Of a stretch of DNA of 64,000 nt, positions 1-47,599 are shown one piece after another. Origin of the DNA: a virus (lineage: Duplodnaviria; Heunggongvirae; Uroviricota; Caudoviricetes); the IMG/VR virus record IMGVR_UViG_3300049783_001441, one strand, 5' to 3'. A program made the position numbers and the translations under genes. The stretch's first letter is position 1, and the number at the start of each line of letters is the position of its first letter. Under the pieces are notes generated by a model, which searched no databases, was not told the DNA's origin, and saw only the letters and a list, made by a program, of their open reading frames with translations.

Positions 1-730
1 CGAGGTAAATACTGGTTGCTGACCATGCGGCGATGCCCGTTTGGCTCACCAGAGTCCAGTTACCCGCTTCGGCCACGGTGAAGGATCCCGCTGCGGTGTG
101 CCCTGCGGTGCTCTTCAGCAAGCGGACGCCCTCCGTCACAGGCTCGCCCGAGGCGTAGGTAGTTCCGCCAACGAACGCGGGGATCTCGTGAGTCGTTACT
201 GGGACGGAGGTAACTGCCGTCCACGAGCCGGCGCTGAAGACACCGGCGCTGGTGAAGGTTGCGCTAGCTTGGTAGACGATACCGCCCGAGTTGACCAGCT
301 CGTCCGCGAGGTAAACCGTCGTTGCGGCCCACGGTGCGATACCGGTCTGCCCGAGCAGTGTCCAGCTACCCGCTTCGGCCTCCGTGAAGGTGGCGGCTGA
401 CGTGTGGCCGGCAGTGCTGCGGAGCAAGCGGACGCCCTCGGTGGCGGTGCCGCCCGAGGCGTAGGTGGTGGCGGCGGTCCAGGCGATAACGTCGGTAGAC
501 GACGCGAGTGTGGACGCGGTTGAGGTCCACGCAGCGCCGCCATAGCGGAACGGCGCGGCGGTGCTACCCAACTGGATGTAGGTGTCTCCGGTCTGCAAAC
601 CGAGCAAAGTACCCGCCGCAATCAGGCTGGGGTCTAGGGTACCTGTGAAGGTGCGGTGTCCGTTTAGCTCAAGGGGTGCGACCCCATCACCGGAGGTTAC
701 GGTAAGGGCAGTGGCGATGGTCCGACTCAT
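1..730 (-). CDS. fibre-like virion protein, N-terminal part (C-terminus lies beyond the window start); contains tandem ~102-aa repeats
   Basis: rc ATG at 728-730 with GGAG 9 nt upstream; minus frame open to position 1 (not in the ORF track because there is no stop inside the window); a 306-nt direct repeat (56-84 vs 362-390; 1-9 vs 307-315) encodes repeated units of the type TYASG.TATEGVRLL.STAGHT.A..FT.AEAG.WTL..QTGIA.W.AT..YL. Confidence 0.55.
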   Translation of the reverse strand, partial: MSRTIATALTVTSGDGVAPLELNGHRTFTGTLDPSLIAAGTLLGLQTGDTYIQLGSTAAPFRYGGAAWTSTASTLASSTDVIAWTAATTYASGGTATEGVRLLRSTAGHTSAATFTEAEAGSWTLLGQTGIAPWAATTVYLADELVNSGGIVYQASATFTSAGVFSAGSWTAVTSVPVTTHEIPAFVGGTTYASGEPVTEGVRLLKSTAGHTAAGSFTVAEAGNWTLVSQTGIAAWSATSIYL

Positions 731-894
731 AGGGGACTCCAAAATGCAGGGTGTAGCTGTGCGTAAGTAAGATACAGCCTAGCATTAACCCAACACCGCG
801 CGCACTACAAACCCACCGGCGCTTAACGCCGAAAAGCCGCGACACTACAGTTAGCGGCGAGGCTTTGAGGTCTGCACTGACGAGCGTTTTCGGC

Positions 895-1896
895 CTAGCC
901 TAGACGCCCGGCTCGCGTACCGAATCGGGCGAATGAACCACTGATACGGGGGTCTGCTGATACGGCGCGGTTGGGGAAAAGTGTTACCCGGACCTTCAGA
1001 TCGGGCTGGATGGCAGCGGCCAATGACGGGTTAGTCGCACCGTCCCCCGCGTCCACCGTGTCTAGTCCGCCGGCCAGCGAGAGGGCGTTACCGTTGCTGA
1101 CCTTGCCGGCCAGCGGGATAACGAGCATCAGGAATGCCGATGTCTCCGGGGCCTTTACGGAGTTGTCATGGAGGTCCACGAGCGCGCCGTGGTCCAACTG
1201 GCGAGGCTTGAGGCCAGCCGAGTTAGCAAGCGACGAACCACCCTTATTGGTGACGGTTGCGATTCCACTGGAGTTACCTACGTGCGACCGGAACAGGCCA
1301 TGGTGCGTCGAAACCAGCGCGCAATGCGTGGGTGAGTTCGACAGAGCGCGGCCTTTGTGCAGGAAGTACTGCTCAATACCGCACCGCTGGATCAGGTTCA
1401 AGTCTGATTGGAGCGGTGCGCCGTCGTCGGCGCTGAACGCGTCAACCGCCATATGCGAGGCTAGGAACTCGGTGCGCCAAGCGGTGTCTCCACCCAGTGC
1501 CTTACGCGAGACGGCGACCCCGTGCTGACCCAACTGGTGATGGATGGACCCGTAGGTTCCGCCAAACAGGTTGGTGTCTGCAAACGGGCGGTCCGGCGTG
1601 GCCAATGCTGTGCCCGCGTAGAACTGCGGGTAGCGGAACAGCGGCACAAACATCGTGGTGGTGTCGGCGTCGTACACGACCGAGCCGGTCGGGAAGTTGT
1701 TGGCAACCTCGATAGCCGTCGCGGCTGCGGCGGTCGTCATAACGCCGCGGGGTAGATTGACGGTGTCGTAGATAGGGTCGGTAGGGCGGACGTTTCGGAT
1801 AAACTCCCCATACGAACTAGCGCTAGCTTGCTGGCATCCAGCAGCGGTGGAGGCAATCGGGGATGCCAGGTTACCGGTGGGGCGGCTTCGGTTCAT
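895..1896 (-). CDS. virion structural protein, paralogue A (333 aa; family not recognised, capsid-like or vertex/fibre-associated)
   Basis: about 50% identical to the 8632-9630 product (DPIYD..PRG, PLFRY, GGT.GSIH, LASHMAVDA.S.DDGA, SPTHCALVS, GLKPR.LD.GALV.LHD.SVKAPET, RVTLFP.R.VS); GGGAG RBS; lies directly upstream of the fibre gene. Confidence 0.55.
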   Translation of the reverse strand: MNRSRPTGNLASPIASTAAGCQQASASSYGEFIRNVRPTDPIYDTVNLPRGVMTTAAAATAIEVANNFPTGSVVYDADTTTMFVPLFRYPQFYAGTALATPDRPFADTNLFGGTYGSIHHQLGQHGVAVSRKALGGDTAWRTEFLASHMAVDAFSADDGAPLQSDLNLIQRCGIEQYFLHKGRALSNSPTHCALVSTHHGLFRSHVGNSSGIATVTNKGGSSLANSAGLKPRQLDHGALVDLHDNSVKAPETSAFLMLVIPLAGKVSNGNALSLAGGLDTVDAGDGATNPSLAAAIQPDLKVRVTLFPNRAVSADPRISGSFARFGTRAGRLG

Positions 1897-5870: not shown

Positions 5871-5884
5871 CCTGGAGTCCCACT

Positions 5885-7324: not shown

Positions 7325-8470
7325 TTAGAATGCGCTCATAACGGTTCGCCGCCAACCGCCCGTGAACTTAATGTAGAGGTAGTCTACACCGCCGTCCGTC
7401 CCGTATGCGAAACAGCCCACCGAGGCCGTGGACAGAGACGCCGACGTTGCGATGGTGCCGTCAGCGGACAACGCGAGCCGCAGCCCTTGGTGCTCGTCGC
7501 CCGCCTTTTGCTCGATGTCTAGGGTCGCGGTGGCGTTCGTGCTCACCGCCGCGGCGTCCCCGTTGACCTTGTGCAGACCCGTGGTGCCCGCGACGAAGCC
7601 TGCGATGGTGTGGCCTAACGACGCCGTGCCGCTACCCGCGCCCTGGAAGTCGATCCCGAACGCCGCGCCTTGCGCTTCGGCGATGGCACCGCGCCCAACG
7701 GCGGCAGAATGCAACCCCTTAGCCTGCGAGCCGGTGCCGATAGCTACGCAGTCCGTGTCGCTTACCGACGCCCCTACGCCTATGGCCACGTAGTCCACGG
7801 CCCCCGCGCCGATTATGGTTCCAAAGCCAAAATCGTAGTTCCTGGCAGACACCGCCAGAACCGTGGACGCTGCCACGCCGCCCGTCAGTAGCAGGTCGGC
7901 TTGGTCCGTGCCTAGCAGCACTGTCGAGAAGCTCTTTAGCTGGGATGTCAGCGAGGTTACGGTCAGGGTGCCGACATTCGTGGTGCCCGTGTCGGTAACT
8001 GTCAGCAAGGTCGCCGCAGCGCCCACAACAAACTGTGAGTTGTTGACGCCCTCCGTCACCACGAAGCCGCTGGAGTCTCCGACGCCGTGTACGAAACGGC
8101 AGGTGGTGGTCGCAGTCGCCGCCCCGGCTACCGTCCAGTCAGCTTGTTGTAGCTGCGTCCAGTTAGCCCCGTCATACGCCGTGATGTCACCGGTAGTGAT
8201 GCCTGGGATGCTCGTGTCGGTCAGTGCCAGGAACGTGGTAACTCCGGCGCTTGCGCCCCCGGTTGCGATCCACGCCGCCCCATCGTAGCGCCACAAGCTG
8301 TCAGCGCTGGTGGTGTCTAGGAAGGTGTCACCGAGAGCAAGCTCGCGGAAGGTGTAACCAGCAGCGTTCGGGTCGCCGGCCCCTATAAACCACCGTGAAC
8401 CCCTTATCTTCATGGCGAAGATCCCGTCGCCCCCGGACAACTGGATGTTTTTGTACGCTGTGGGTGGCAT
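7325..8470 (-). CDS. Gly/Ala/Thr-rich fibre or spike protein
   Basis: 381 aa, low-complexity G/A/T/V-rich shaft-like sequence with an N-terminal conserved-looking domain (KNIQLSGGDGIFAMKIRGSRWFIGAGDPNAAG); immediately downstream of paralogue B. Confidence 0.55.
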   Translation of the reverse strand: MPPTAYKNIQLSGGDGIFAMKIRGSRWFIGAGDPNAAGYTFRELALGDTFLDTTSADSLWRYDGAAWIATGGASAGVTTFLALTDTSIPGITTGDITAYDGANWTQLQQADWTVAGAATATTTCRFVHGVGDSSGFVVTEGVNNSQFVVGAAATLLTVTDTGTTNVGTLTVTSLTSQLKSFSTVLLGTDQADLLLTGGVAASTVLAVSARNYDFGFGTIIGAGAVDYVAIGVGASVSDTDCVAIGTGSQAKGLHSAAVGRGAIAEAQGAAFGIDFQGAGSGTASLGHTIAGFVAGTTGLHKVNGDAAAVSTNATATLDIEQKAGDEHQGLRLALSADGTIATSASLSTASVGCFAYGTDGGVDYLYIKFTGGWRRTVMSAF

Positions 8471-8631
8471 GTGTGCTCCGCGTGGGTCTGGGGTCTTGCG
8501 CCGCGCAACCCGCGCCGGCAGCGCAAAGGCGCTAGCTGGTGACGGGTAACCCGGAAAAGTAGAGGCATAAAACAGAGCCGCCCCGCCCGAGCAAACGAAC
8601 AGGGCGGCGGTCAGTCAACCAGAGGGTCGAC

Positions 8632-9630
8632 TTACTTCGTGAGCATCATCGGAGCTTGCGGGCCGAACTTGCTACGGGCACCCGGATCAGACGAGGAGAC
8701 GGTCCGGTCTGGGAAGAGTGTAACGCGGATAACGACGCCAGGCTGGACAGCGTTGGCAACGGCGGGGAGGGCGTTCGTGCCGTCATCAATCGAGTCGAAC
8801 CCGGTGACGTTGGCCAGAACCGAGCCGCTGGTTGCCTTGCGGAAGAACGGAATGCGCAGGGTCAAGTATGCGCGGGTCTCTGGGGCCTTGACACTGTCGT
8901 CATGCAGCACAACGAGTGCTCCACGGTCGAGCTTGCGGGGCTTCAGGCCGGACGGGCTCTGGAGGCTTGCACCACCGGAGGTCTTGGCAGCGGCAGCGCC
9001 ATCAGAATCGCCAGCGTGGGCGCGGAAGATTCCTGGGAAGCATGAAACCAGGGCGCAATGCGTCGGGGAGTCTGCAACCGTGCGGCCACCGATCAGGTAA
9101 TCCTGCTCAAGCGTGCCCTTTTGGATGCTGTTAACGTCGGTGAGCAAGAGCGCTCCGTCGTCGTTGGAGTAAGCATCAACGGCCATGTGCGAGGCAAGGT
9201 ACTCTGCGGTCCAGGCTTCGCCGCCGGCAGGGAGGTTGTTGCGTGAAGTAGCAACGCCGCCATGGCCGGTTTCATTGTGGATGGACCCGAAAGTCCCGCC
9301 GTAGATATTGGTCTCGTCCAAGCCGCGAGCCGGTGCAGTCACGCCGCTGGTGTAGCGGTGGTAGCGGAACAAGGGGATGGCGATGAACTTTTCGGTGGCG
9401 TCCCACGAGATCGTGCCGGCGGGGTAACCGTTAGCAGTTTCCATGGCAGCCAACACGACGGCAGACGACAAGTCGCCACGCGGAATGATGATGCTGTCGT
9501 AAATCGGGTCATCGAGGCCAACGCGAGCGATGAAATCGCTGAAAATGTCGCCCTTGTTGAACTGGCCCATCTTGCAGCCGGCTGCGGCCACCGATGCGAT
9601 AGGGGATGAGAGGCGAGTGTTGTCGTTCAT
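8632..9630 (-). CDS. virion structural protein, paralogue B (333 aa from the ATG at 9630)
   Basis: paralogue of 895-1896; start MNDNTRLSSPIASVAAAGC with GGAG RBS; the track ORF extends to 9678. Confidence 0.55.
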   Translation of the reverse strand: MNDNTRLSSPIASVAAAGCKMGQFNKGDIFSDFIARVGLDDPIYDSIIIPRGDLSSAVVLAAMETANGYPAGTISWDATEKFIAIPLFRYHRYTSGVTAPARGLDETNIYGGTFGSIHNETGHGGVATSRNNLPAGGEAWTAEYLASHMAVDAYSNDDGALLLTDVNSIQKGTLEQDYLIGGRTVADSPTHCALVSCFPGIFRAHAGDSDGAAAAKTSGGASLQSPSGLKPRKLDRGALVVLHDDSVKAPETRAYLTLRIPFFRKATSGSVLANVTGFDSIDDGTNALPAVANAVQPGVVIRVTLFPDRTVSSSDPGARSKFGPQAPMMLTK

Positions 9631-9649: not shown

Positions 9650-10114
9650 TTACGCGGGTATAATAGTGGAAATTTCAAGATGAGAGAGGTTGTCTGGGCG
9701 GGTCTGCCCTAAAATGACTTCCGCAAAGAGTACCGGCCAACGCGGCGGCTTTACGGTGAAAGACGCATGTTCACGACTTACCAACTGTGCTGGTATGACT
9801 ACGCCTAAATGGGAGTGCGTTGCGTCGGCGAAAAACCGAACGGACAGCGCTCCCGGTGCGGCCCACTGTACGTCCAGCTTAGCTGCCGGCACCAGTGAGA
9901 ACACCATGCGAAAACCCAAGCCCCAGCTAAGGGGGTCGGCCCACAACAGGCCGCAATGGTTGCGGGCTAATTCCTTAGCCCTGGCCGCCTCTGGTTGGAG
10001 CACCCCATCGGCCACCACTGTAAATATCGGCCCTGGCTTATCCAGTGTGCCCGCCGCAAACCCCGTTCCAGGGGTTGACAGCAGCAGTAGCCTATTTTTC
10101 AGCGGTTCAGCCAT
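9650..10114 (-). CDS. hypothetical protein (154 aa)
   Basis: ORF in the operon upstream of paralogue B; no motif recognised. Confidence 0.45.
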   Translation of the reverse strand: MAEPLKNRLLLLSTPGTGFAAGTLDKPGPIFTVVADGVLQPEAARAKELARNHCGLLWADPLSWGLGFRMVFSLVPAAKLDVQWAAPGALSVRFFADATHSHLGVVIPAQLVSREHASFTVKPPRWPVLFAEVILGQTRPDNLSHLEISTIIPA

Positions 10115-10159
10115 GGGGCGAGATCTCCAGCAGGGGTTACTTACTTACTTACTTTGAGC

Positions 10160-10585
10160 TTAGTAGACGCTGGTGCCGTCGTCAAGGGTAACTGCGACCG
10201 TCACTTCGTCGTCTGCGCCGTCAGCGCCTTCAGCGATGGCTCCAGCGTTGGCACGCATTTCGCGGACATACTGAACGGTGGCGGGTGCGGACATTCCGAT
10301 AGCGAAGCCGGCTCCGACTTGCGCGGACGAGTCAACGCCAGCAGCGTTGAGGCCCATTGCGATTCCGGTGCCGACGACGGCTCCGGCGATAACGTCGGTC
10401 AGGACTCGCATCTTGGAGCCTTGCTCGGGAAGCCATTCGCCAGCGAAGCGCTCGATAAGGAACGAAGCGCCAACGCCCGCGCCAACTCCAGCAGCCGCGG
10501 GAGCGGCCATCATGCTGTAATCGATGACGGTGGACAGAGCGCCACCTTGCTGGCTAAGGTCCATGTAGTAGTTATCGGTGTTCAT
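10160..10585 (-). CDS. Gly/Ala-rich small hydrophobic protein
   Basis: 141 aa with several G/A-rich hydrophobic stretches (AAPAAAGVGAGVGASFLI, VIAGAVVGTGIAMGLNAAGV). Confidence 0.45.
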   Translation of the reverse strand: MNTDNYYMDLSQQGGALSTVIDYSMMAAPAAAGVGAGVGASFLIERFAGEWLPEQGSKMRVLTDVIAGAVVGTGIAMGLNAAGVDSSAQVGAGFAIGMSAPATVQYVREMRANAGAIAEGADGADDEVTVAVTLDDGTSVY

Positions 10586-10655: not shown

Positions 10656-11486
10656 TTACTCGGCAGATTTGCCAAGCGCCTTTAAGGGTGCGGTAACTCC
10701 GGCTAGCGCGCCTTTCAGCTCACTCCCGAAGTAAAACAACACCGCAAGAAACACTACAATTAGGACCACGGCGTAGTACGCCCCGGCTGATTGTATGAAG
10801 ACTTTGAAGATGTTTTTTGACCACTCGCTGAAGCCTCCCTTGGCTTCAATCGCGGTATCTTTTAACGCGGCCAGTGCCCTAGGCACCGTAGTAATCGCCA
10901 CCTCCAGCCCACCGTTTAGGGCTCGCGAGGCAGTTTCATACCAGCCCGAATCTAGCGGCTCTAGCTCGCCGTCCATAATCTCATTCGCCAGCCTAAAGGC
11001 CACCTGGGAGCCGAGGTTGCCAGCCACTCGCGCGGCTCCTCGGATGGTATCTTCGATGTCGCCGGTGCCGTTTGCACGGGGTATCGCGGGCAGGCCAGCC
11101 AGCCCCAGAATGTGGAGTGCGCTGAACTGCTCCCAACCGTAGGTAGCTTCCAGCCGGCCCAGCTTGCGGGCGGACGCGACCTTGAACTGGTCGTTACCGG
11201 TGTCGGCGTAGCCAACGGCGTAGATATACGCGGCGCGGACGTGCGCGCCAAAGTTGGTGCGTGGACGCATCATTACGCGGGCGGTAACATTGGACGGGGT
11301 GCCGTCTGGCACCAGGCTAACGAGCGCCGCCATGCTGGGGTTAGACGAGCCGGCGAGGCGAGTGTCCGAGCAGCCACAACCACCGGAGCTAGCCGCTACA
11401 GAGGCGATGGACGAGGCGAGGTGGGAGTCTTCGCAGGCCGAGCATTTCCCCTTATTCGTATTCCCGCAACCGGATAACTCACTCAT
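10656..11486 (-). CDS. Cys-rich protein with C-terminal transmembrane anchor
   Basis: N-terminus CGNTNKGKCSACEDSH...SSIASVAASSGGCGC shares the IASVAA..GC motif with both virion-protein paralogues; C-terminal helix AYYAVVLIVVFLAVLFYFG. Confidence 0.5.
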   Translation of the reverse strand: MSELSGCGNTNKGKCSACEDSHLASSIASVAASSGGCGCSDTRLAGSSNPSMAALVSLVPDGTPSNVTARVMMRPRTNFGAHVRAAYIYAVGYADTGNDQFKVASARKLGRLEATYGWEQFSALHILGLAGLPAIPRANGTGDIEDTIRGAARVAGNLGSQVAFRLANEIMDGELEPLDSGWYETASRALNGGLEVAITTVPRALAALKDTAIEAKGGFSEWSKNIFKVFIQSAGAYYAVVLIVVFLAVLFYFGSELKGALAGVTAPLKALGKSAE

Positions 11487-11865
11487 AGGTAACCTCTGTG
11501 AGACTTGCGCCCCTGCTGCTAGTCCACTTTAACACTGCTAGTAACCCGAAGGCCACCGCAATGCAGGCCAAAGTCCACACCCACCACGGGGTAGCTTTAA
11601 CTTTTTCGATTCCGGCCTCTGCTCGGTCCAGGCTGTCCACCCAAAAACCGCCCTCTTCCGAGCTTAGCGGATCCGAGCCCCAGTCCGAGTCTGTCGAATC
11701 TGACGGCACTAGGTCCGTGCTCTCTTCGCCAGACTGCGGGCTGGGGTCGGTGTAGCCGTTAGACGGGTCGTCCAAAGCGTCCTGCTTACTAGATAGCTGG
11801 TTTTTTAGCCGGTTTGCTAACCCGGCGGCGCGACCTGCTTGGAACTCTGGGAAGGGCTTACCCAC
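11479..11865 (-). CDS. tail-anchored membrane protein (acidic N-terminal domain)
   Basis: C-terminal helix WWVWTLACIAVAFGLLAVL. Confidence 0.45.
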   Translation of the reverse strand: MGKPFPEFQAGRAAGLANRLKNQLSSKQDALDDPSNGYTDPSPQSGEESTDLVPSDSTDSDWGSDPLSSEEGGFWVDSLDRAEAGIEKVKATPWWVWTLACIAVAFGLLAVLKWTSSRGASLTEVTYE

Positions 11866-11868
11866 GAG

Positions 11869-12390
11869 TTACCTCCGCCCGACGAGAACGAGCATTAACA
11901 CCACGAACAGGGCTGCGAGCGCCGCGGCTCCCAGCCCCACCCACTTCCAAGGGCTCTCTGTCTCCACCAAGTAATTCGCGGCGTCTTTCAGGATCGCCCC
12001 GGCAGACTTTGACTCTGCCGGTGGGGGTGTGTCCACACCGGGCGCGTCGTCGGGTTGGTGCGAAGCGTATTCGCGGAGCATGGCTAGCTCCACGATCTGC
12101 CAGTCAACCATGCGAGCATGGGCGTAGCGGTCGTTCGCCGTGGCCGTTGCCGGCGGGCTAACCTTAATCAAGGTCTGCTCGATGCGGCGGTCAGCTTCGG
12201 CGATAAACGCGCGCAAGCCTTTACTGTCCACTGGCGGGCTCTGGATGGCCGTGAACCAGTTAACCCCGCTAGCTTTGAGCCAGCTTAGGCGAGCGCCTAG
12301 CTGGGTGTAGGAACCGTCCTCGTAGGGGTAGTCTACGCCTTGAACGCCGGTGGGGTTGCTCGTGTGGCTATCGGTGGCATTATGCGGCAT
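11869..12390 (-). CDS. tail-anchored membrane protein
   Basis: C-terminal helix VGLGAAALAALFVVLMLVLVG. Confidence 0.45.
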   Translation of the reverse strand: MPHNATDSHTSNPTGVQGVDYPYEDGSYTQLGARLSWLKASGVNWFTAIQSPPVDSKGLRAFIAEADRRIEQTLIKVSPPATATANDRYAHARMVDWQIVELAMLREYASHQPDDAPGVDTPPPAESKSAGAILKDAANYLVETESPWKWVGLGAAALAALFVVLMLVLVGRR

Positions 12391-13333
12391 TGGACTTGCC
12401 TCCGAGTGTCTTCGCGAGGAGCACCACGAGCACGAGTGCGGCCACGAGAATCAGAGCCCCCGCCGCGTATGCAAAGTAGTTGGGCTTGTCGTCGGTCAAC
12501 CCGAACTCGCCGCCGGCATCGAGTTCGCCGTTGTTACCGGGCTCGTCAGGGCGGTCCATTCTGCGGCCGTCTTCGCGGTCCATTTTGGTGCTGTTACCTT
12601 CGCTGCGATCTTCGAGGGTGTCAGCGCCGGGTACGCCACGGGTCTTGATGCCCTCGGGGTGCTTGATGCGCTGCATGGCCGTAGAGTTTAGCACCTGCAA
12701 CCGCGCCGCTTCACCGTGGCCCGTGGTGATCACGCCACGCGTGCGGTAGGCCGCCACTGGGATCACGCCGCCGGTTAGTCCCGGCATCGGGACATCGGCC
12801 CAACTCTCTTTGAATGGGGTCAGCATGAAGCCCGCGCCGTACTTGCGGAGTAGCTGCCCTAGCTCGCGGTAACCTGCCCGCCACGCCTCTACTTCGGGCA
12901 GCGTGCGTGCAGCGGCACGGCGAGCCCTACCGGTCAGGGGATCAGCCGGGTTGGCCGATGGCCCGCTAGGGTTGAGCAATCGGCGCACCTTTTCAGGCAT
13001 CCGGCCCGGCCTGGCAACGACGTGTTTGATTACCTGCTTCCAAGTCTGGCCCAGAAACGGCTTAATCAGAGCTTGCAGGCGGATAGAGTCGCGGCCTACT
13101 TCGGCTGTCAGGTTCGCCATGCGCAGATAATAGTACGGGCGCATACCCGTAGACAGCCACAGGTTTTTGTGCGCTTGCTTTTTGGTGAGTACCGCCCGAA
13201 CGACCTCTTGCTGTGCGGCCTTTAGGAAGGCTTCGCGGTCGCTAGTACCCCACGATGGCCACAACTGGGCCGCGTCTAGCGCTAGTGTGGGTAAGTCTCG
13301 GGAAAGCCCCGCCGAAATGTCCGTGTGGCTCAT
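12380..13333 (-). CDS. tail-anchored membrane protein (317 aa)
   Basis: C-terminal helix FAYAAGALILVAALVLVVLLA. Confidence 0.5.
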   Translation of the reverse strand: MSHTDISAGLSRDLPTLALDAAQLWPSWGTSDREAFLKAAQQEVVRAVLTKKQAHKNLWLSTGMRPYYYLRMANLTAEVGRDSIRLQALIKPFLGQTWKQVIKHVVARPGRMPEKVRRLLNPSGPSANPADPLTGRARRAAARTLPEVEAWRAGYRELGQLLRKYGAGFMLTPFKESWADVPMPGLTGGVIPVAAYRTRGVITTGHGEAARLQVLNSTAMQRIKHPEGIKTRGVPGADTLEDRSEGNSTKMDREDGRRMDRPDEPGNNGELDAGGEFGLTDDKPNYFAYAAGALILVAALVLVVLLAKTLGGKSNAA

Positions 13334-13659
13334 GGCGAACCCCTTCGCGGTAACATGGCAATGATGAGCACAACAAGTGCCAGGATAACCACCACGACAA
13401 CCGATAGGCCGGCATAGTTCGTTGGGTTTAGCTGGCTAAGGGCCAGCTCTAAGTGTTGCTCCACGCGGAGCAACATCGCATACGTTTCGGCATCGCCAGC
13501 TCGGCGGGCACGCAACTTTTGCCGCTGCACCTCGGCGAGCTTGGCCGGGATACTGGCGCTGGTCTGTAGGTACGCGGATACGCCGGGGGCTAACGCCGCC
13601 AGGGTATCCGAGTCCAAACGCCCGACAATGTCGAGCGCAGCGCCAGTAACGTCAGCCAT
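13330..13659 (-). CDS. tail-anchored membrane protein
   Basis: C-terminal helix LSVVVVVILALVVLIIAML. Confidence 0.45.
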   Translation of the reverse strand: MADVTGAALDIVGRLDSDTLAALAPGVSAYLQTSASIPAKLAEVQRQKLRARRAGDAETYAMLLRVEQHLELALSQLNPTNYAGLSVVVVVILALVVLIIAMLPRRGSP

Positions 13660-13662
13660 GGC

Positions 13663-14106
13663 CTAGCCGCGAGCCTTGCTGATGCCGAGCGCAATGAGCA
13701 CACCCAACAGCACAAACACCACGAGACCAATCACGCGCCCTGGGGTTACCAGGGGTGCGGGAGGGGTGACTAGGGGGTTGTTACTGGTGGTGTCGTCAAG
13801 TTCGTCAAACACGTCCTCGCCAGCCGAACCCTTACCTTGAGCGGCGCGGATAAGTTCAGCGGCGGTCGGTCCGAGTGCGTCCACGAGGTCCGCAGCGAGA
13901 CGAGCAGCTTCCGCTGGGCTGATGCCGGAATCACCGGAGCCGCCGCCGGAATCTGGGGTGTCGCCACCGGTCTTTCTGCCGTTTTCGAGTGGGGCCTTAC
14001 CCGCGAGGCGAGCTTCGCTAAGCTGTGGTTGGCCGCCATCTTCTTCGAGCAACAGACGTTCGTATTCGGCCTCGTCGGGCCAGTCTTCTAGGGGTGGCAT
14101 AGGCAA
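13663..14106 (-). CDS. tail-anchored membrane protein
   Basis: C-terminal helix VIGLVVFVLLGVLIALGI. Confidence 0.45.
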   Translation of the reverse strand: MPMPPLEDWPDEAEYERLLLEEDGGQPQLSEARLAGKAPLENGRKTGGDTPDSGGGSGDSGISPAEAARLAADLVDALGPTAAELIRAAQGKGSAGEDVFDELDDTTSNNPLVTPPAPLVTPGRVIGLVVFVLLGVLIALGISKARG

Positions 14107-14124
14107 CTCCTCGGGCTTTACCCG

Positions 14125-14904
14125 TTAGGTTTGAGTCATTGTAACTGGTTTCCCGCCAAAATAGGCGGCAACAGCTAGTAGTAGCATGGCGGCAACGAGA
14201 AAAAACAAGTTACCACCTTTGGGTGCCCGACCGGCTCCGGCCAGCCACCCGTGGTTTCGGGCCGACGAGGTTACCACCCGGCTGGAGGTAGACCCGAAGG
14301 GCTCCCAGTCGGCGGTAGCGTCGGCTTCGCGGAATTGAATACTGCACGACACGTTACCTCGCGCGTCGGCGGCGCACTCTGGAGGCGTGCCGATGTCCAC
14401 AAAAATGTGGGTCGGGCTACCCGGCATATTTACCCCGCTGTCCGAGGTCCAGCGCTGCCCGTTGGGGTGGAACCCTGCGAGCATGAAGCGGTACGGAAGG
14501 CCGATAGAAGCCGCCGCAGCCGCCAGGAATACCGAGAAGTCGTCACAGTCCCCAAGCTGGTGCTCTATGGTGTCTAGCGGGTGCTGGATGTACTCTCCCG
14601 CCTCCAACACGTAGTAAAGGTTCTCCACGGCCCACTGGTGGATGGCACGGGCTTGGTTCACGTAGTCTCTGGGTGCTACTCTGGCCTTGCGGAGAATGCG
14701 GGTAACCACGAACACGCGCAACTCGTTGGCCTCCGCGGCCTCGTCGGAAACTTTGCGCAGACTGCCCAGCCGCTCGGACCACGACATTCGGTCCCACGAA
14801 GAGCGGGAGACTTGCGGGCCACGAATCGTGGGTACCGAAATCTTACGGGGCTTGCGCGGGCGACCTAGGCGGGTCTCGTCCATCACGGGTAAGGGGATCA
14901 GCAT
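14125..14904 (-). CDS. transglutaminase-like cysteine protease, C-terminally membrane-anchored
   Basis: Cys box GDCDDFSVFLAAAAASIGLPYRFMLAGF (cf. G.C.DFA.....L.RA.GIPAR.V.GY), His SPTHIFVDIG, then Asp; C-terminal helix LFFLVAAMLLLAVAAYFG. Confidence 0.6.
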   Translation of the reverse strand: MLIPLPVMDETRLGRPRKPRKISVPTIRGPQVSRSSWDRMSWSERLGSLRKVSDEAAEANELRVFVVTRILRKARVAPRDYVNQARAIHQWAVENLYYVLEAGEYIQHPLDTIEHQLGDCDDFSVFLAAAAASIGLPYRFMLAGFHPNGQRWTSDSGVNMPGSPTHIFVDIGTPPECAADARGNVSCSIQFREADATADWEPFGSTSSRVVTSSARNHGWLAGAGRAPKGGNLFFLVAAMLLLAVAAYFGGKPVTMTQT

Positions 14905-14907
14905 TGG

Positions 14908-15660
14908 TTACTCCGGGGCCGCTGCGAGGCGCAACGCCGTGTAGATGGCCACGATCAAAAGCACGACCATGAGGGCGGCCTTGCCGCCTACCCTTAACCG
15001 TTTGGCGTTGGCGAGGGACAGCATCGGTCGGCCCCCGGCAGCGCTGCTGCCTTTGTCGTGCGCCAGGGAGCCCGCAGCGGCAATCGCAGCGGCCTCGGTG
15101 GCGTTGTTCACCTCTGACGACTCGCGCGCCGCCCACGCCCCTAGAAACGACGTGTAAGCCGCTGTGCGGATACGGATGTGCGCGGCATTCCAGGCGTGCC
15201 GTTCGATGCGCCGCCCGAACAGTAACGCCAGATCCAGCACGCTCATATCCGACTCGCCTGCTGTCTTGACCGTGTCAGCCCAGCGGCCCGCGTCTAGCTC
15301 TTGCTCGATGAGGGCGCGGACGTTGGTTACCGGGTCAAGCCTCGGGTCTGCCGGGTGCGCGTATGCGCGACCTTCGCGGAATACCGGACCCGGCGGGTTC
15401 AGTATGCTGCCCGCGCCGTCTGGCACCTTCAGTTGGTGCAGCCCAACACTGAACTCCCGTGTACGCCCGTCTGGCCACTTCGTGTACGCAACAGCGTCGT
15501 TACGAAGGCGGCTTTCGGCCCACGCATTCGCCGCCGCAGCTAGGGTAAGTGCCGGAGTCGTGCCGTACTGGCCGTAAACCCGGATGAGCGTGGCTAGGTT
15601 CTGCCGCTGCTCTGCATTCAGGCTGGCAGCGGGTGTGAAGGCGGCTAGGGGTAGGCTCAC
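14908..15660 (-). CDS. tail-anchored membrane protein
   Basis: probable GTG start at 15658-15660 overlapping the upstream stop (GTGA); the track ORF extends to 15846, which is an implausible 190-nt overlap; C-terminal helix ALMVVLLIVAIYTALRLA. Confidence 0.45.
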   Translation of the reverse strand: MSLPLAAFTPAASLNAEQRQNLATLIRVYGQYGTTPALTLAAAANAWAESRLRNDAVAYTKWPDGRTREFSVGLHQLKVPDGAGSILNPPGPVFREGRAYAHPADPRLDPVTNVRALIEQELDAGRWADTVKTAGESDMSVLDLALLFGRRIERHAWNAAHIRIRTAAYTSFLGAWAARESSEVNNATEAAAIAAAGSLAHDKGSSAAGGRPMLSLANAKRLRVGGKAALMVVLLIVAIYTALRLAAAPE

Positions 15661-16286
15661 TTGGACCCCCGGAACTTGGACCACGCGAACACCGCTGCGA
15701 TTGTGACCAGCAGCACCAAGCCGAACGCTACGGAGCCTTTGGCTGCGACCTTGGCTGCGTCTCGCACGGGTTGGACGTAACTCGCGGCCTTGTCGGCAAC
15801 CCCGCTGATCCACGGCACAATGCCCTCGGACTTTGAGGGGTACCACGGTACCAAAGGTCCGCTCGCAGGCTGGTACTGGAACCGGCGGTTGTTGCCGGAA
15901 GCGCGGTGACTAACGTGGACGTGCCCGCCCTTGCTCGCGTGGTACAGGATTACCTGACCTACCGGAATATCCGGGTTCAGGTACAGGTACTCCATAAGGT
16001 CGCGCGACGTGCCTTCCACCGGCTTGACATCCGCAGCTTCGCCCTTGATGTGCTGGGAGTTATTGTTGCTCCCCACGCACGCACTGTTGTTGATTACGGC
16101 AGTTCGGAAGCCGCTTATGCGCTGTAGCCCGCCGAACTGCACCCACAACGGGTCCAGCACGTTGATAGCCAGCGCCATGAGCGCCGCCCTCTGGGTGGGG
16201 CTAGGCGTGTTGGGGTTACCCGCAGCGGCGGCGCAACCACTACGGGTAAGCGCCTCTTCGGACAGATACAGGCTAAGCATGGCCAC
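15657..16286 (-). CDS. LAS-family (peptidase M15-like) zinc metallopeptidase, C-terminally membrane-anchored
   Basis: SQHIKGEAADV matches S-x-H-x-x-G-x-A-x-D; second metal motif GGHVHVSH; C-terminal helix VAFGLVLLVTIAAVFAW. Confidence 0.65.
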   Translation of the reverse strand: MAMLSLYLSEEALTRSGCAAAAGNPNTPSPTQRAALMALAINVLDPLWVQFGGLQRISGFRTAVINNSACVGSNNNSQHIKGEAADVKPVEGTSRDLMEYLYLNPDIPVGQVILYHASKGGHVHVSHRASGNNRRFQYQPASGPLVPWYPSKSEGIVPWISGVADKAASYVQPVRDAAKVAAKGSVAFGLVLLVTIAAVFAWSKFRGSK

Positions 16287-16289
16287 GGG

Positions 16290-16892
16290 TTACCTCAACT
16301 TCGCGTAGGCGCGGGGTACGGTCATTGCGAGCAAGGCAAGGCTGATACTGACCAGCGCAATCAGCAGGTACAGACCCAACATACTCACCCGGCGTTGGTT
16401 GCGCTGTCCGGCTGTAATGCGGGTCTCGCGGGCTTTCTCGACCAACAGAGCGCCTTCGCGGGTAATGTCGCCCTGGAGGATAGCGGTTGCAGCCGCCTCC
16501 TTTTCGCGAGCGCCACCACCGTTTTTGGTGCGCATCTTCTCGATAGACTGCGCCAATTCTGCGGGGGTATCGTCAGAGTACTTGGCGTACACGCGGCGGT
16601 ACCGCTTGCTGAAGCCTTGCTCTTCCAGTTGGTTACGGATCAGCACCTTGGTCGGGTCCGTGTTGGCGGCCCCGGCTCCGATAGCACTACCTACGATCGA
16701 GACAACCGCGCCCGCAGCCGCCAAGGCGACATTGATCGGGGGTAACGGCAGCATTACGCCGATCGTGGTTAGTGCTGAACCCACCGCAACCGTGCCGCCG
16801 CCTATCGCCGTCTGCGCTGCGATACCTTTCTCTACCCGCTCAACTTCCGTTGGCGTTGGCGTGTGGAGTACGGGTGGCTGGGACGGCAGCAC
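16290..16892 (-). CDS. tail-anchored membrane protein
   Basis: hydrophobic ALAAAGAVVSIVGSAIGAGAA plus C-terminal helix LGLYLLIALVSISLALLAM. Confidence 0.45.
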   Translation of the reverse strand: MLPSQPPVLHTPTPTEVERVEKGIAAQTAIGGGTVAVGSALTTIGVMLPLPPINVALAAAGAVVSIVGSAIGAGAANTDPTKVLIRNQLEEQGFSKRYRRVYAKYSDDTPAELAQSIEKMRTKNGGGAREKEAAATAILQGDITREGALLVEKARETRITAGQRNQRRVSMLGLYLLIALVSISLALLAMTVPRAYAKLR

Positions 16893-17308
16893 TACGCCAC
16901 CTCAAGCGCCGCGTCCGGCCCCGGAGCCGGGAACAGCGCGACCAGCACGACTAGCGCAATGAGGGCGAAGATAGCGGCAACTCCGCCGATCCATGCCCAC
17001 TTGTTTTCGCCACGGAAAACGTCTAGGTAACTGGGTGGGTTCAGCAGCGCGTTTTCGGCGTCTTCGTTCGCTTGTAGCGCCAACTCTAGGTCCACGGCGG
17101 CTTGATCGAGGTCGCCTTCGTCGTTGGCGCAATCGTCGAGACGCCCTTCCCACTTGGCGTACCACGCGCTTAGCTTCTTATTGCGGTACGACTTCTTACC
17201 GTCCGCTTTGGCAGCCATGTAACCATCATACAGCCGTTGGGCCTTGGCGCACGAGGTCTTTTCAGGCGTGGCCGCTAGGCGGCTCGGGCTGGGTTTAGAT
17301 GGTCGCAT
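16892..17308 (-). CDS. tail-anchored membrane protein
   Basis: C-terminal helix WIGGVAAIFALIALVVLVALF. Confidence 0.45.
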   Translation of the reverse strand: MRPSKPSPSRLAATPEKTSCAKAQRLYDGYMAAKADGKKSYRNKKLSAWYAKWEGRLDDCANDEGDLDQAAVDLELALQANEDAENALLNPPSYLDVFRGENKWAWIGGVAAIFALIALVVLVALFPAPGPDAALEVA

Positions 17309-17411: not shown

Positions 17412-18629
17412 CTAGAAGTCGAGGTCAGCGACCGTAATCTGCGAGGTCTTGGTGGTCTTGCGGGGCTTGCGGGCCTTCGGCTTGGTGGTCTTTGCCTTCG
17501 GGGCGGCCTTTGCCTTTGCCTTTGCCTTTGCCTTTGCCTTCGGGGCGGCCTTTGCCTTCGGGGCGGCCTTCGGTGCGGCCTTTGCCTTGGCGCGGGCGGC
17601 GTCACGGGCAGCGTTGAGCTTCAGCCACTTGGCGGCTACTGGCTTGATCTTCGCGGCTTCGGCAGTGCTGGGCTTGTGCAGTTGCGACTGGCTGGAGACA
17701 GCCTTGACGCGGCCTTGCAGGCTTGCAGTAGCGCGGACAGTGAGCTTGCCCTTGCTAGCGCCGCTCGTGCCGCGGCCCACGTAGAAGCCAGTTACCCAAC
17801 CGGCACCAGTCTCGTAGCGCACGGGCTGGCCTAGCGACGGGACTGCGGTGAGCGCCTTACCGGAATCGGTGGCGGCGGTCTTCTTTGCGGCGGGAGCTTT
17901 GCGCTTCGCGGTAGCTTTGCGCGTAGCCGGAGCGGCGGTCTTCTTAGCGGCAGTCTTCTTTTTGGCCGGAGCTTTGCGCTTTGCCGGAGCGGTCTTCTTT
18001 GCAGCGGTCTTCTTTGCCTTGGTATCGCGCTCGCTAGTCGAGCCCGGCCCGCTGCGTGGGCGTCCGCCTGCCGGTGCCTTGGCGGTCTTGCGCTTCGCCG
18101 CGGGAGCTTTGCTCGTCGGAACCAGCTTCATGCCGCGGATAGCGGCGAGCGAGCGCAGCTCTGCGAGGGAGAGTTCCTTGCAGTTGGCCGCGGCAGCAGC
18201 GGTAACCGGAGCACCGAGTGCGAGCGACCATGACGAACCGCTCTTGTTGGCCTTGCTGCCGGCGAACTTGTAGTTCGCGAGGCAACGGGCCTGGGTGGCT
18301 GCGCCGGTAGCCTTGACGGCGATCTCGGCGACGTTACCCTTGCGGATAGACACTTTCACCGGGATGCTGGACAGCTTGCTGCCGGCACCGAGGCGGAGCT
18401 TAGCGGTGTACCAGACGGTAGCGCGCTTGGCGTTACCCTTGGTTTCCTTGCGGCGGTTGTTGATTGCGGCCTGAATCTTGGCGGACTCGGCAGCGGCGGG
18501 TGGGTAGCGTTTAAGCAGTGCTTTGGTAGCAACGATCATGGGAGGAACCTCCGTCCAAACGGACATAGTGTGCGGGGCTCCAAACAAAGCACCCGGAGAC
18601 AGGGTAACCCCTGGTCCGGGTAACGGCAA
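17412..18629 (-). CDS. Lys/Ala/Pro-rich histone-H1-like basic DNA-binding protein
   Basis: 405 aa; long KAKAAPKAAPKAKAAPKAKAKAKAK and KKTAAKKTAPAKRKAPAKKK tracts encoded by GCCTTT-type simple repeats (about 17500-17600). Confidence 0.55.
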   Translation of the reverse strand: MPLPGPGVTLSPGALFGAPHTMSVWTEVPPMIVATKALLKRYPPAAAESAKIQAAINNRRKETKGNAKRATVWYTAKLRLGAGSKLSSIPVKVSIRKGNVAEIAVKATGAATQARCLANYKFAGSKANKSGSSWSLALGAPVTAAAAANCKELSLAELRSLAAIRGMKLVPTSKAPAAKRKTAKAPAGGRPRSGPGSTSERDTKAKKTAAKKTAPAKRKAPAKKKTAAKKTAAPATRKATAKRKAPAAKKTAATDSGKALTAVPSLGQPVRYETGAGWVTGFYVGRGTSGASKGKLTVRATASLQGRVKAVSSQSQLHKPSTAEAAKIKPVAAKWLKLNAARDAARAKAKAAPKAAPKAKAAPKAKAKAKAKAKAAPKAKTTKPKARKPRKTTKTSQITVADLDF

Positions 18630-31561: not shown

Positions 31562-32359
31562 TTACTCCGTACCGAGTAGCAGTTCTAGCCCGCCATCACC
31601 AGCCGCAACGCCGGACAACTCGCCGTCCCACTTGTCAATGGCGCGGAGTCGCAGCGTGCGGTCTGTTACCGTGTCGGCCAGCAGCGTTTGGGCGGCAGCT
31701 TCGGCGGTCGCTACAGCCAGCAACGCGGCGGCCTCTCCGCCTGCGGTAGCCGCGGCTTGTAGCGCCTCGGTCTTGATGCGCGCTAAGTCGTTCAACGCTT
31801 CAGCAGCGGCTTGTTCGGCGATTTGCTTGGCTTCGATGGCGTGCTGGAAGTCTTCGTCGTAACGGAAATCCGTCAAAGACACCTCGCCAAGCTCAATCCA
31901 GCTGCGGTTGAGAACGGGCTCAAGCGCGGTCTGGATGGCATCCTTGACTTCCGCGCGCTTCGTGACCAACTCTTCGGCGGTATACTGCGCGGTAGCGGCC
32001 TTCACGGACTCGTTGAGAGCCGGCTGAATGACCACGTCGTTGAGCGCTTCCATCGTGCCGATGGTCTGGTAGATGTCGCGGACGTGGTCGCCGTCGAGTC
32101 GGTACGAAAGCACCACCTCGGAGGTAACCACCTGCATATCCTTGGAGGAGGCGACGGCGGTGATGGTCATGCGTTGCAAGCGGGTGTCGTACGTGATCAT
32201 GGAGGACATGGGCGACATGCCGTACCAGCCTTCGGTCCAGACTCCATCTTGAGTCTCGGACCACGAGGTCCAGACGCCGACGTAGCCGGGGGTGACTTTA
32301 CTGCATGCGCTGGTGAGGGTAAGTAGGGTGAACAGGGCAAGGGCGACAAGTGATCGCAT
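31562..32359 (-). CDS. SPFH/band-7 (HflC/K-like) domain lipoprotein
   Basis: signal peptide plus lipobox MRSLVALALFTLLTLTSAC; SPFH-like core DMQVVTSEVVLSYRLDGDHVRDIYQTIG...ALNDVVIQP...YTAEELVTKRAEV; Ala-rich coiled-coil tail. Confidence 0.55.
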   Translation of the reverse strand: MRSLVALALFTLLTLTSACSKVTPGYVGVWTSWSETQDGVWTEGWYGMSPMSSMITYDTRLQRMTITAVASSKDMQVVTSEVVLSYRLDGDHVRDIYQTIGTMEALNDVVIQPALNESVKAATAQYTAEELVTKRAEVKDAIQTALEPVLNRSWIELGEVSLTDFRYDEDFQHAIEAKQIAEQAAAEALNDLARIKTEALQAAATAGGEAAALLAVATAEAAAQTLLADTVTDRTLRLRAIDKWDGELSGVAAGDGGLELLLGTE

Positions 32360-40667: not shown

Positions 40668-40967
40668 ATGACCATGCACGACGCCGACACCCCACCCCCT
40701 GAAGCCCTGGCCGCCGTTCGCGACTGGCTCGTTGCCTCCGGTCGCGAGGGTCACGCCGCCGCCCTAGACTCCGCGTGGGAGCGGGCAACGGGTGTGGGGC
40801 CGGTGCCGCCAGAGGACTTGGACCCGGAGCAAACGGCCATCTTGAAGCTAAGGTTACTCGCCAGAGCAGCCACCATTAACGTGCTGCTCGGTTCCGTCCG
40901 AGCCATCGCTATTGCCGCTGTGGTGGGCTTTATCTGGCTGATCGTGCGCAGCTTGACGCGCAGGTAA
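40668..40967 (+). CDS. small protein with C-terminal TM helix
   Basis: AIAIAAVVGFIWLIV. Confidence 0.4.
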   Translation: MTMHDADTPPPEALAAVRDWLVASGREGHAAALDSAWERATGVGPVPPEDLDPEQTAILKLRLLARAATINVLLGSVRAIAIAAVVGFIWLIVRSLTRR

Positions 40968-46161: not shown

Positions 46162-46193
46162 CCTTGAAACCAAACCCGAAACTTGGAGGTCTC

Positions 46194-46655
46194 ATGGACC
46201 CGATAGTAGACCTAGACTCTGACCTTTCCGCTGACTCGGACAGCGTAGCTGACGCCAACAACCACCTGACGGACCTAGTCGGCATTCTGGACGGTGCGCA
46301 GGACGCAAACCCCGAGTTCACCGGAACTAGCCTAGCTGCGCAGTACGGACTAACCATGCTGCTAGTTATCGTGATTACGCAAGCCGCCCGCCGTTACTCC
46401 AAGTTCCTGAACTTCGACAAGGGCACCATCCCGGTGCTCGCTGGCGTGATCTCCACGCTGCTCGTCGTGGTCGGAAGCGCGGTCGGAAGCGCGGTGTATG
46501 GCATGGATTACTCTTGTCTGCAAGTCTTGCAGTTCGGCACGTCCGCCGCCATGGCCTCGGTGCTTAGTTACTACGGCGTGGACCGCTCTTGGAAGGTGTT
46601 CCGCCTAGCCGTTGCTTTCCGCGCCGCTAAGCGCGCCTCCGCAGACTCCCAGTAA
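46194..46655 (+). CDS. holin-like membrane protein
   Basis: ATG 46194 with GGAGGT RBS (the track start 46164 is a TTG); 2-3 hydrophobic helices (LTMLLVIVITQAA, IPVLAGVISTLLVVVGSAVGSAVYG, LQFGTSAAMASVLSYYG); immediately upstream of the muramidase. Confidence 0.4.
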   Translation: MDPIVDLDSDLSADSDSVADANNHLTDLVGILDGAQDANPEFTGTSLAAQYGLTMLLVIVITQAARRYSKFLNFDKGTIPVLAGVISTLLVVVGSAVGSAVYGMDYSCLQVLQFGTSAAMASVLSYYGVDRSWKVFRLAVAFRAAKRASADSQ

Positions 46656-46691
46656 TGCGATGTTACGACCCCGAAAACGAGGACAACTAAT

Positions 46692-47480: not shown

Positions 47481-47599
47481 CGGGTCTAGTGGACTTGCGT
47501 GGTGTAACGGTTTAATAATGGTGTATCGAGCCGCCTCCGGGCGGTCAGACTCACAGCGGTTCAGGCTATCGCCAAGACCCCCACACTGGAATACCACCC

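Follow-up and report, generated by a model that had tools for sequence, protein, structure and literature searches.

The stretch of DNA analyzed here (the window) comprises 64,000 nucleotides of the IMG/VR record IMGVR_UViG_3300049783_001441 and is part of an uncultured, phage-like element of roughly 100 kb from glacier ice, almost all of which is dark. Eleven contiguous minus-strand open reading frames (ORFs), designated TA1 to TA11, fill positions 10656 to 17308 of the window (Table 1). In a Kyte-Doolittle (KD) hydropathy scan with a 19-residue span and the usual threshold of 1.6, every one of the 11 products shows a single strong hydrophobic helix (19-mer maxima of 2.2 to 3.5) that lies 4 to 19 residues from the C terminus, and none of them has an N-terminal signal sequence or an N-terminal hydrophobic 19-mer scoring 1.6 or more. 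An extra hydrophobic stretch, weak and Gly/Ala-rich, is found in TA2 alone (residues 35 to 73). This topology, called from hydropathy and charge, bears out the original prediction, made from the letters of the window, that all 11 products are tail-anchored. It is seen in just one other protein among the ~85 ORFs of the window (40668 to 40967), and the chance that 11 of 12 tail-anchored genes would form a single run is about 4e-11.

The array genes are translationally coupled, as they overlap or are separated by gaps of 0 to 20 nucleotides. The Shine-Dalgarno motif GGAG(G)T(A)AC is common to the junctions, and the upstream stop codon often lies inside it. Because of this junction pattern, the start of TA4, listed as an ORF at 14908 to 15846, was moved to a GTG at 15660 (a GTGA overlap), and the long forms of TA5 and TA11 are supported; public gene calls begin TA11 at residue 52, which gives a product of 225 amino acids (aa). 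No intrinsic terminator of any strength is found within the array.

All 11 array products, together with 21 proteins encoded by two distantly related contigs (L008 and L009, described below), contain a single helix within the last ~50 residues and a short tail. In these 32 proteins, the uncharged stretch is 19 to 34 residues long and the tail beyond it has 1 to 19 residues. The tail is net positive in 29 of the 32, with an Arg or Lys immediately after the helix, and the summed charge of the tails is +53, compared to +8 for the 15 residues upstream. A hydrophobic segment followed by a basic tail is the only part of the Gram-positive sorting signal that the array proteins share. A sortase-type signal was rejected, as the proteins lack signal peptides and the 15 residues that precede each helix contain neither LPXTG nor LAXTG; PEP-CTERM and PGF-CTERM signals were rejected on the absence of signal peptides and of the respective motifs. 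Cellular tail-anchored proteins, which are inserted after translation and keep their N terminus in the cytoplasm, similarly have no signal peptide, one transmembrane (TM) helix at the extreme C terminus, and a very short tail, but they are encoded by scattered single genes.

Table 1. Features of the window (TM positions are residue numbers; z scores are from the comparison of N-terminal domains described in the text)
Feature	Coordinates	Strand	Description
TA1	16892..17308	-	138 aa; TM 107-125, KD 2.97; N-domain orthologs in L009 (z 10.4) and L008 (z 7.5)
TA2	16290..16892	-	200 aa; Gly/Ala-rich stretch 35-73 and C-terminal TM 174-192
TA3	15657..16286	-	M15 (LAS) peptidase with C-terminal TM; Peptidase_M15_3, PF08291, 1.2e-06
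TA4	14908..15660	-	250 aa; lysozyme/lytic transglycosylase-like; probable start at GTG 15660
TA5	14125..14904	-	259 aa; transglutaminase-core, cysteine protease-like; Transglut_core, PF01841, 6.8e-08
TA6	13663..14106	-	147 aa; acidic, Pro-rich; TM 125-143, KD 2.95; sequence-variable slot, no significant ortholog
TA7	13330..13659	-	109 aa; KD 3.51; orthologs in L008 (z 9.9) and L009 (z 8.7)
TA8	12380..13333	-	317 aa; TM 288-306
TA9	11869..12390	-	173 aa; TM 151-169, tail RR
TA10	11479..11865	-	128 aa; acidic; TM 94-112
TA11	10656..11486	-	276 aa; TM 239-257; final array member in all relatives
Lys/Ala-rich basic protein	17412..18629	-	405 aa, pI 11.4; operon head
Small Gly/Ala-rich membrane protein	10160..10585	-	141 aa; glycine-zipper-like
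Small beta-rich soluble protein	9650..10114	-	154 aa; candidate small capsid or vertex protein
Beta-sandwich protein	8632..9630	-	332 aa; candidate major capsid or vertex protein
Strong intrinsic terminator	8577..8608	-	directly 3' of the 332-aa gene; 13-bp stem, 10 G-C pairs, T tail
Fiber- or spike-like protein	7325..8470	-	381 aa; rich in Gly, Ala, Thr
Paralog of the 332-aa protein	895..1896	-	49% identity (alignment A1); opens second cassette
5' part of giant fiber/adhesin-like gene	2..742	-	N terminus like that of the 381-aa protein, 36% identity over 86 aa
SPFH/Band 7 protein	31562..32359	-	lipoprotein signal, LTSAC lipobox
Lysis cassette	46164..48073	+	holin-like membrane protein, N-acetylmuramidase (PF11860, 9.4e-19), second membrane protein
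Patatin-like phospholipase	48961..49908	+	PF01734, 5.6e-04, below the Pfam cutoff

Three of the array products, TA3, TA4, and TA5, are wall enzymes, and only these combine an N-terminal peptidoglycan hydrolase with a C-terminal TM helix. The peptidase domain of TA3 and the transglutaminase-like domain of TA5, both proposed in the original prediction, are real by Pfam comparison; the lysozyme-like domain of TA4 had been missed. TA4 has orthologs in L008 and L009 (N-domain z scores of 16 and 14) with matches to SLT_3 and to PF18013 ("phage tail lysozyme," 4e-09). Both an AES motif, of catalytic type, and a GLxQ motif are fully conserved among the three proteins. A PDB sequence search with TA4 gave nothing useful. 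The TA5 orthologs in the same two contigs share 46 to 49% identity, an invariant GDCDDF motif, and the C-terminal TM helix (z scores of 92 and 64). A search with TA5 alone found only TA5 itself; the profile of the three orthologs added a 128-aa fragment from a 1.1-kb contig labeled Saccharibacteria, as well as distant single-gene relatives that occur without the array (e.g., in L012).

TA3 matches PHROG 894 (endolysin, 2.9e-12). The N-domain comparison reveals no counterpart of it in L008 or L009, and it is specific to the array of the window. Its nearest homologs, with 49% and 43% identity, are encoded by unrelated high-GC contigs (L001:10001-10681 and L005:5862-6587), and both end in a hydrophobic helix and a basic tail; thus, anchored M15 peptidases exist outside this module. 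L005 has the look of a small phage; it encodes several short beta-rich proteins and has one ORF exceeding 2,000 aa.

The remaining eight N-terminal domains, of ~70 to 290 residues, have no match in Pfam, PHROGs, or ESM Atlas. For TA8, there is no Pfam or PHROG family, and ESM Atlas gives only weak leads below 0.9 (feature scores of ~0.8); for TA11, it gives no usable lead (feature scores of ~0.8; a poor stored model with a predicted local distance difference test [pLDDT] value of 0.43).

The array proteins are nearly orphans. Comparison of the array, TA5, and the 330-aa protein, at the DNA and protein levels, with 50,697 phage records and 72,556 plasmids gave no match; nor did scans of IMG/VR with two array proteins and alignment A2, or scans of GTDB species genomes and JGI metagenome contigs with alignment A2. 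The relatives were found with a profile of the 332-aa protein (8632 to 9630) and its paralog (895 to 1896) among 1.84 billion representative proteins. This search returned three homologs (P0047, P0048, and P0049; E values of 2e-32 to 9e-24), encoded on contigs that are syntenic with the window. The G+C content is 70% in L008, 50% in L009 and L010, and 57% in L011. L009 and L010 merge into 14.9 kb with no terminal repeats, and walking along contigs gave nothing longer.

In both L008 and L009, 10 tail-anchored genes are found in the conserved order. Three of these form a divergent leftward operon and are orthologs of window genes 1, 2, and 4; the other seven form a rightward operon that starts with the transglutaminase-like gene. 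The arrays are followed by genes for a small protein with two hydrophobic segments, a soluble protein of ~148 aa, a protein of ~320 aa, and a fiber-like protein of ~415 aa. In L008, an endolysin-type gene delimits the module, whose ~12 kb leave no room for a terminase, a portal, an HK97 capsid, and a tail set. The relatives also encode endolysins with peptidoglycan-binding domains and a holin-like protein, apart from the array.

Orthology of the N-terminal domains was assessed after removing the last 30 residues (helix and tail), against shuffled controls. Clear orthologs are seen for 6 of the 11 proteins, TA1, TA2, TA4, TA5, TA7, and TA11 (z scores of 6 to 92). Those of TA2 in L009 (z 23) and L008 (z 18) retain both of its hydrophobic features, and TA11 is found in L008 (z 7.6), L009 (z 6.1), and also L011. 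In the TA6, TA8, TA9, and TA10 slots, the topology is kept and the sequence is not. The array thus recurs in elements that otherwise share almost nothing and range from 50 to 70% in G+C content. The third enzyme, the conserved basic-tail signature, and the conservation across four elements go beyond what was initially observed.

The array lies in an operon with genes on both sides. The basic protein at its head contains long AKK/KAKA runs, like those of histone H1-type or actinobacterial HU tails, and might be a DNA-condensing or core protein. A basic protein is found at the matching position in L008 and L009; the sequence similarity is weak (z of ~3), and the link is one of position and composition. 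Downstream of the array, the product of 10160 to 10585 matches its slot-mates in the relatives by position only; the latter are proteins of 131 to 147 aa with two hydrophobic segments and are related to each other (z 14 to 15). Four copies of AAGT immediately follow the stop codon of this gene (10115 to 10160, minus strand), providing TAA stops in more than one frame, and the 154-aa gene comes next. This is a real gene, conserved in L008, L009, and L011 (alignment A4; z 7.0 and 5.5) and called in public records. The adjacent 154-aa and 332-aa beta-rich pair is conserved in all four elements.

The 381-aa product of 7325 to 8470 has homologs of 424 aa (z 9.7) and 413 aa in L008 and L009, encoded after the ~330-aa gene. 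The pair of a ~330-aa gene and a fiber-like gene occurs twice in the window, as direct repeats on the minus strand, and the two fiber-like proteins are alike only over the first ~86 residues. At full length, the second of these has 2,821 aa (L020:10006-18471), with faint CBM_5_12 and weak TSP3 matches. The duplicated pair looks like two alternative host recognition cassettes. The motif S-P/S-I-A-S-x-A-A-x-G-C is found near the N termini of the 332-aa protein, its paralog, and the long form of TA11, and an SPIAS-like sequence is found at the C terminus of the small beta protein of L009. This motif is lipobox-like, yet no signal sequence precedes it. The claim that the array lies directly upstream of virion and fiber genes therefore holds as far as conserved beta-rich and fiber-like genes are concerned; a virion role of their products is presumed.

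Structural models provide limited help in assigning these proteins. An AlphaFold2 model of the 332-aa protein, built from five sequences, is mostly beta, unlike HK97, with a predicted template modeling (TM) score of 0.61 and a mean pLDDT of 53. Foldseek searches of PDB and BFVD with this model gave no match at E values of 1e-3 or less. In exhaustive VIA-align comparisons, where according to the tool a Z score below ~8 may mean merely a common arrangement, the best matches are jelly-rolls, namely, a geminivirus coat protein and P23-77 VP16 (both with Z of 4.8), followed by a chain of HCIV-1 (4.1) and P23-77 VP17 (3.7); lectins, carbohydrate-binding modules, and Tc-toxin domains score equally. 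The model of the 154-aa protein is poor (pLDDT of 48), and its best match is a baseplate domain (Z of 5.4). ESM Atlas gives no usable feature match for the 332-aa protein, for which the stored model is also poor (pLDDT of 0.25), and a fold search there yields one viral 204-aa cluster (TM scores of 0.40 by query and 0.59 by target). hhalign detects no similarity between alignment A2 and P23-77 VP17 or between alignment A4 and VP16, and PDB sequence searches with alignment A1 and the fiber-like protein gave nothing useful.

The rest of the element offers few familiar genes. Its longest public contig has 98.8 kb, of which ~90 kb was examined: walking along public contigs extended the window by 18.5 kb to the left and 7 kb to the right. 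A search of sequencing runs finds the window sequence in ice metagenome runs only, with no RNA run among them. The left flank contains the continuation of the giant fiber-like gene, a RecD-like helicase, and a giant SNF2-type helicase fusion, and the right flank contains a DUF3987 protein and a ResIII helicase. The giant left ORF (L022:1-4645, 18.5 to 13.9 kb left of the window), of more than 2,103 aa, combines long extensions with the SNF2 motifs DESH, TGT, and QTVGRIHR and is similar to the large helicase fusions known from plasmids and from some phages; a tape measure identity was rejected on the basis of its motifs. On the plus strand, a family A DNA polymerase (PF00476) is split into an exonuclease-like part (2210 to 3670) and a polymerase part (3667 to 5058), with only weak matches among phage records (26 to 33% identity, to actinophage polymerases); it is followed by a tyrosine integrase (5058 to 5870) and a methyltransferase-like ORF. 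This block (2210 to 6631), which lies on the opposite strand between the two cassettes, may have been inserted or inverted.

A lysis cassette is encoded separately from the array, which argues that the array enzymes are not the main lysis enzymes. A homolog of the patatin-like protein (z 7.9) is encoded directly after the fiber gene in L009 (L009:9196-10086), and this lipase and the SPFH lipoprotein could bear on the way the element handles membranes. A MoxR-type AAA+ ATPase (22363 to 23400, minus strand) is followed, in the region from 20690 to 23400, by a 558-aa protein whose N-terminal ~300 residues are an extreme Asp/Glu/Gly run and whose C-terminal part has a DISGS motif, resembling a metal ion-dependent adhesion site (MIDAS). 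The two might form a pair of a MoxR protein and a von Willebrand factor A-like protein in a phage-like element, a call made from the motif and negative in Pfam. The window also encodes an HU protein and has weak helicase and primase matches. A haloarchaeal origin was rejected on the basis of bacterial Shine-Dalgarno sites, the HU protein, lipobox lipoproteins, and the mixed distribution of pI values.

No terminase, portal, HK97 capsid, or tail gene is found among ~60 window proteins compared with Pfam and PHROG or in the precomputed Pfam matches of the flanks and the relatives (12.7 and 14.9 kb). In agreement with the expectation that the array is not part of a tailed-phage morphogenesis operon, no such gene is recognized in ~90 kb, a span that leaves at least ~9 kb of the element unseen and in which very divergent genes could escape recognition. 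Similarly, motif and Pfam searches of these incomplete genomes reveal no FtsK/HerA-type packaging ATPase near the module in the relatives or in the window. No ORF of L008 (12.7 kb) has a Walker A motif; the sole such pattern in L009/L010 (AVMQSGKS) is near the far contig end, away from the module, and those in the window are the MoxR-type protein and three implausible sites. Relaxase, VirB4, VirD4, and TraB-like genes are not recognized either.

The original prediction regarded a run of tail-anchored proteins as a hallmark of PRD1-like viruses with internal membranes. That claim is overstated. The annotated genomes of PRD1, Bam35, and P23-77, scanned by the same hydropathy method, have late-operon clusters of single-pass membrane proteins of mixed orientation, mostly very small and in part anchored at the N terminus, and encode, respectively, 0, 2, and 4 strict tail-anchored proteins with N-terminal domains of more than 30 residues. 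Even for membrane-containing phages, so uniform a series of 11 sizeable tail-anchored proteins is out of the ordinary. The proposal of an internal membrane fares better in one respect, as signal-less hydrolases anchored in the viral membrane have precedents: PRD1 P7 and Bam35 P26 are transglycosylases of the virion membrane, and P26 is reported to have no signal peptide (PMC8539640). Their TM helices are at residues 221 to 239 of 265 in P7, where a tail of 26 residues just misses the strict definition, and 178 to 196 of 250 in P26.

The element thus shares with the Tectiviridae (PRD1 and Bam35) a late-operon cluster of single-pass membrane proteins beside capsid and spike genes (candidates, in the element), a signal-less wall hydrolase whose TM helix comes late in the sequence (a functional resemblance only), and a separate lysis system. 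However, the features that define tectiviruses, namely, a double jelly-roll capsid protein, an adjacent FtsK/HerA-type ATPase, a protein-primed family B polymerase, and a linear genome of ~15 kb, are not found. The closest candidate for the capsid, the 332-aa protein, matches single jelly-rolls, at best with the Z of 4.8 given by a model with a pLDDT of 53, and no double jelly-roll protein is recognizable; the polymerase is of family A; the merged L009/L010 has no inverted terminal repeat; and the element has at least 90 kb. It is not a tectivirus, and membership in any described family fails on the features tested.

P23-77, a Thermus phage of the Helvetiavirae with two single jelly-roll capsid proteins and an internal membrane, also shows parallels. 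Its 173-aa and 291-aa capsid pair parallels the 154-aa and 332-aa pair, four tail-anchored structural or adjacent proteins (VP15, ORF18, VP19, and ORF27) flank that pair, the virion contains a lysozyme, and VP16 and VP17 are among the best structural matches, although at noise level (VP16 with Z of 4.8 and VP17 with 3.7 for the large model, and VP17 with 3.9 for the small one). The order of a small and then a large beta protein and the strong terminator after the large gene resemble the P23-77 layout, a parallel that is suggestive only. P23-77 has a packaging ATPase just upstream of its capsid genes, where none is found in the element, and a circular genome of 17 kb, and its membrane proteins, many of them N-terminally anchored, come after the capsid genes.

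Tailed phages provide the other comparison. The endolysins M4Lys of phage BSPM4 and that of Enc34 have, like TA3, TA4, and TA5, an N-terminal hydrolase domain, no signal peptide, and a C-terminal TM domain. These are single genes within tailed-phage lysis cassettes (PMC7143992; PMC8943055), whereas the element has three enzymes in an array of 11 genes, most of them for nonenzymes, ~30 kb from the lysis cassette. The TM domain of M4Lys is needed for lysis, which is independent of holin and Sec (PMC7143992); the Enc34 endolysin is a further case (PMC8943055). No description of a conserved operon of 10 or 11 tail-anchored proteins with peptidoglycan hydrolase cargo was found in the literature.

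The best single explanation of these features is a virion membrane. With a confidence somewhat short of even, the array may be the membrane protein set of a lipid-containing virion from an undescribed lineage of phage-like elements. The viral membrane would be either internal or an envelope acquired inside the cell. The proteins would be made in the producer cytoplasm without signal peptides and inserted posttranslationally through the C-terminal helix, so that the N-terminal domains, including the three wall enzymes, stay cytoplasmic, need no export, and leave the producer wall unharmed. Membrane proteins of phages are known to be placed in the host membrane first, and a patch of it is then pinched off into the particle (PMC6356626). 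Such a patch would carry the basic tails toward the DNA and the N-terminal domains outward, under or among the beta-sandwich and fiber proteins. At infection, the viral membrane would meet or fuse with that of the new host and the topology would be inverted: the basic tails would come to lie in the new cytoplasm, matching the positive-inside rule, and the lysozyme-like, transglutaminase-like, and M15 domains would lie in the cell wall, where they could open a path for the DNA.

This scheme would account for the uniform topology, the basic tails, the signal-less hydrolases, the separate lysis cassette, and the linkage to beta-sandwich and fiber-like genes. The topology is kept in L008 and L009 while the sequence drifts. 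Two wall enzymes, the PF18013 lysozyme-like and the Transglut_core proteins, are core members of the array, and signal peptides are absent throughout. Each element has an ordinary endolysin and holin elsewhere, and the array enzymes therefore probably serve another step. Presence in a virion, presence of lipid, the orientation of the proteins, and the capsid role of the downstream products are what we infer from these patterns.

Several observations weigh against a virion membrane. Association of the array products with lipid and with a particle is presumptive. Known membrane phages show mixed topologies rather than uniform tail anchors, and those compared have genomes of ~15 to 17 kb and recognizable capsid and ATPase hallmarks. 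At ~100 kb, the genome exceeds all of theirs by a wide margin, and the scheme does not account for the packaging of so much DNA without a recognizable motor; neither the window nor the surroundings of the module in the relatives yielded an FtsK/HerA-type packaging ATPase, and at least ~9 kb of the element is unseen. The capsid assignment is weak: the models behind it have pLDDT values of 53 and 48 and Z scores of 4.8 and 5.4, in the noise, and match lectins, carbohydrate-binding modules, and tail and baseplate domains too. Finally, the duplicated pair of 330-aa and fiber-like genes fits a receptor-binding module at least as well as it fits a capsid gene.

The array might instead serve lysis or egress as a membrane-tethered apparatus that never leaves the infected cell, with the hydrolases waiting on the cytoplasmic face of the membrane. 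This is unlikely, although it draws on real precedents, as tailed phages do have single endolysins with a C-terminal TM domain (M4Lys and that of Enc34), the M15 protein belongs to a PHROG endolysin family and its closest homologs on unrelated contigs also have the C-terminal helix, and lysis genes often adjoin late structural genes. However, 8 of the 11 array proteins have no enzyme domain, a holin-like and muramidase cassette is encoded separately at 46 to 48 kb, and the relatives have their own endolysins and a holin-like gene. Furthermore, the array is cotranscribed and syntenic with beta-sandwich and fiber-like genes in elements of 50 to 70% G+C content, and the lysozyme domain conserved in it belongs to PF18013, a "phage tail lysozyme" type that acts at entry.

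In a somewhat less probable proposal, the array encodes ejection or pilot proteins of a lipid-free (e.g., podovirus-like) capsid whose head genes are unseen; the proteins would be stored, expelled, and inserted from outside to form a conduit for the DNA. Some ejection proteins, such as T7 gp16, are known to combine a hydrolase domain with a membrane-inserting segment. Proteins inserted from outside would conform to the positive-inside rule directly, as their basic tails would be drawn inward. The models of the 330-aa and small proteins match tail, baseplate, and fiber domains at Z scores as weak as those for capsids, the duplicated cassette of 330-aa and fiber-like genes looks like a host range module, and the missing genes could lie in the part of the element, at least ~9 kb, that is unseen. 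On the other hand, 10 or 11 proteins with very hydrophobic helices of 19 to 34 residues (KD of up to 3.5) would be hard to keep soluble inside a capsid that has no lipid, and no terminase, portal, HK97 capsid, or tail tube is recognized in ~90 kb or in the 12.7-kb and 14.9-kb relatives. Least probable, with only a small chance of being correct, is a role outside the virion, as a membrane-bound platform for assembly, replication, or superinfection exclusion or as a surface apparatus of a nonviral mobile element. It would suit a mostly dark element in which capsid and packaging hallmarks are not identified and which encodes the MoxR-type AAA+ protein beside the acidic MIDAS-like protein, the SPFH lipoprotein, and the patatin-like lipase, all membrane related. 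Conjugation genes of the types listed above are not recognized, however, and phage-type lysis cassettes, the tyrosine integrase, PHROG matches, and a phage-like gene layout are present; it is also not obvious what a purely intracellular platform would gain from wall hydrolases on the cytoplasmic side.

Lipid-containing phages, thought to be widespread in nature, are badly undersampled. If the array does belong to a virion membrane, it suggests a simple route by which active wall hydrolases could be brought into a particle without being exported and without killing the producer. Should the lysis alternative prove true, no membrane-tethered lysis system described so far would come close to it in complexity. 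A bolder version of the virion membrane proposal, which we regard as improbable in its entirety, would place the four elements in a lineage of lipid-containing bacterial viruses that is new at a high rank, with genomes of up to ~100 kb, neither an HK97/terminase/portal module nor a jelly-roll/FtsK-ATPase module, a membrane proteome that is almost wholly tail-anchored, and a topology inversion that delivers wall enzymes without a secretion signal. Apart from that, a conserved operon of 10 or 11 tail-anchored genes could help to detect lipid-containing phages in metagenomes, as a signature that does not depend on sequence.

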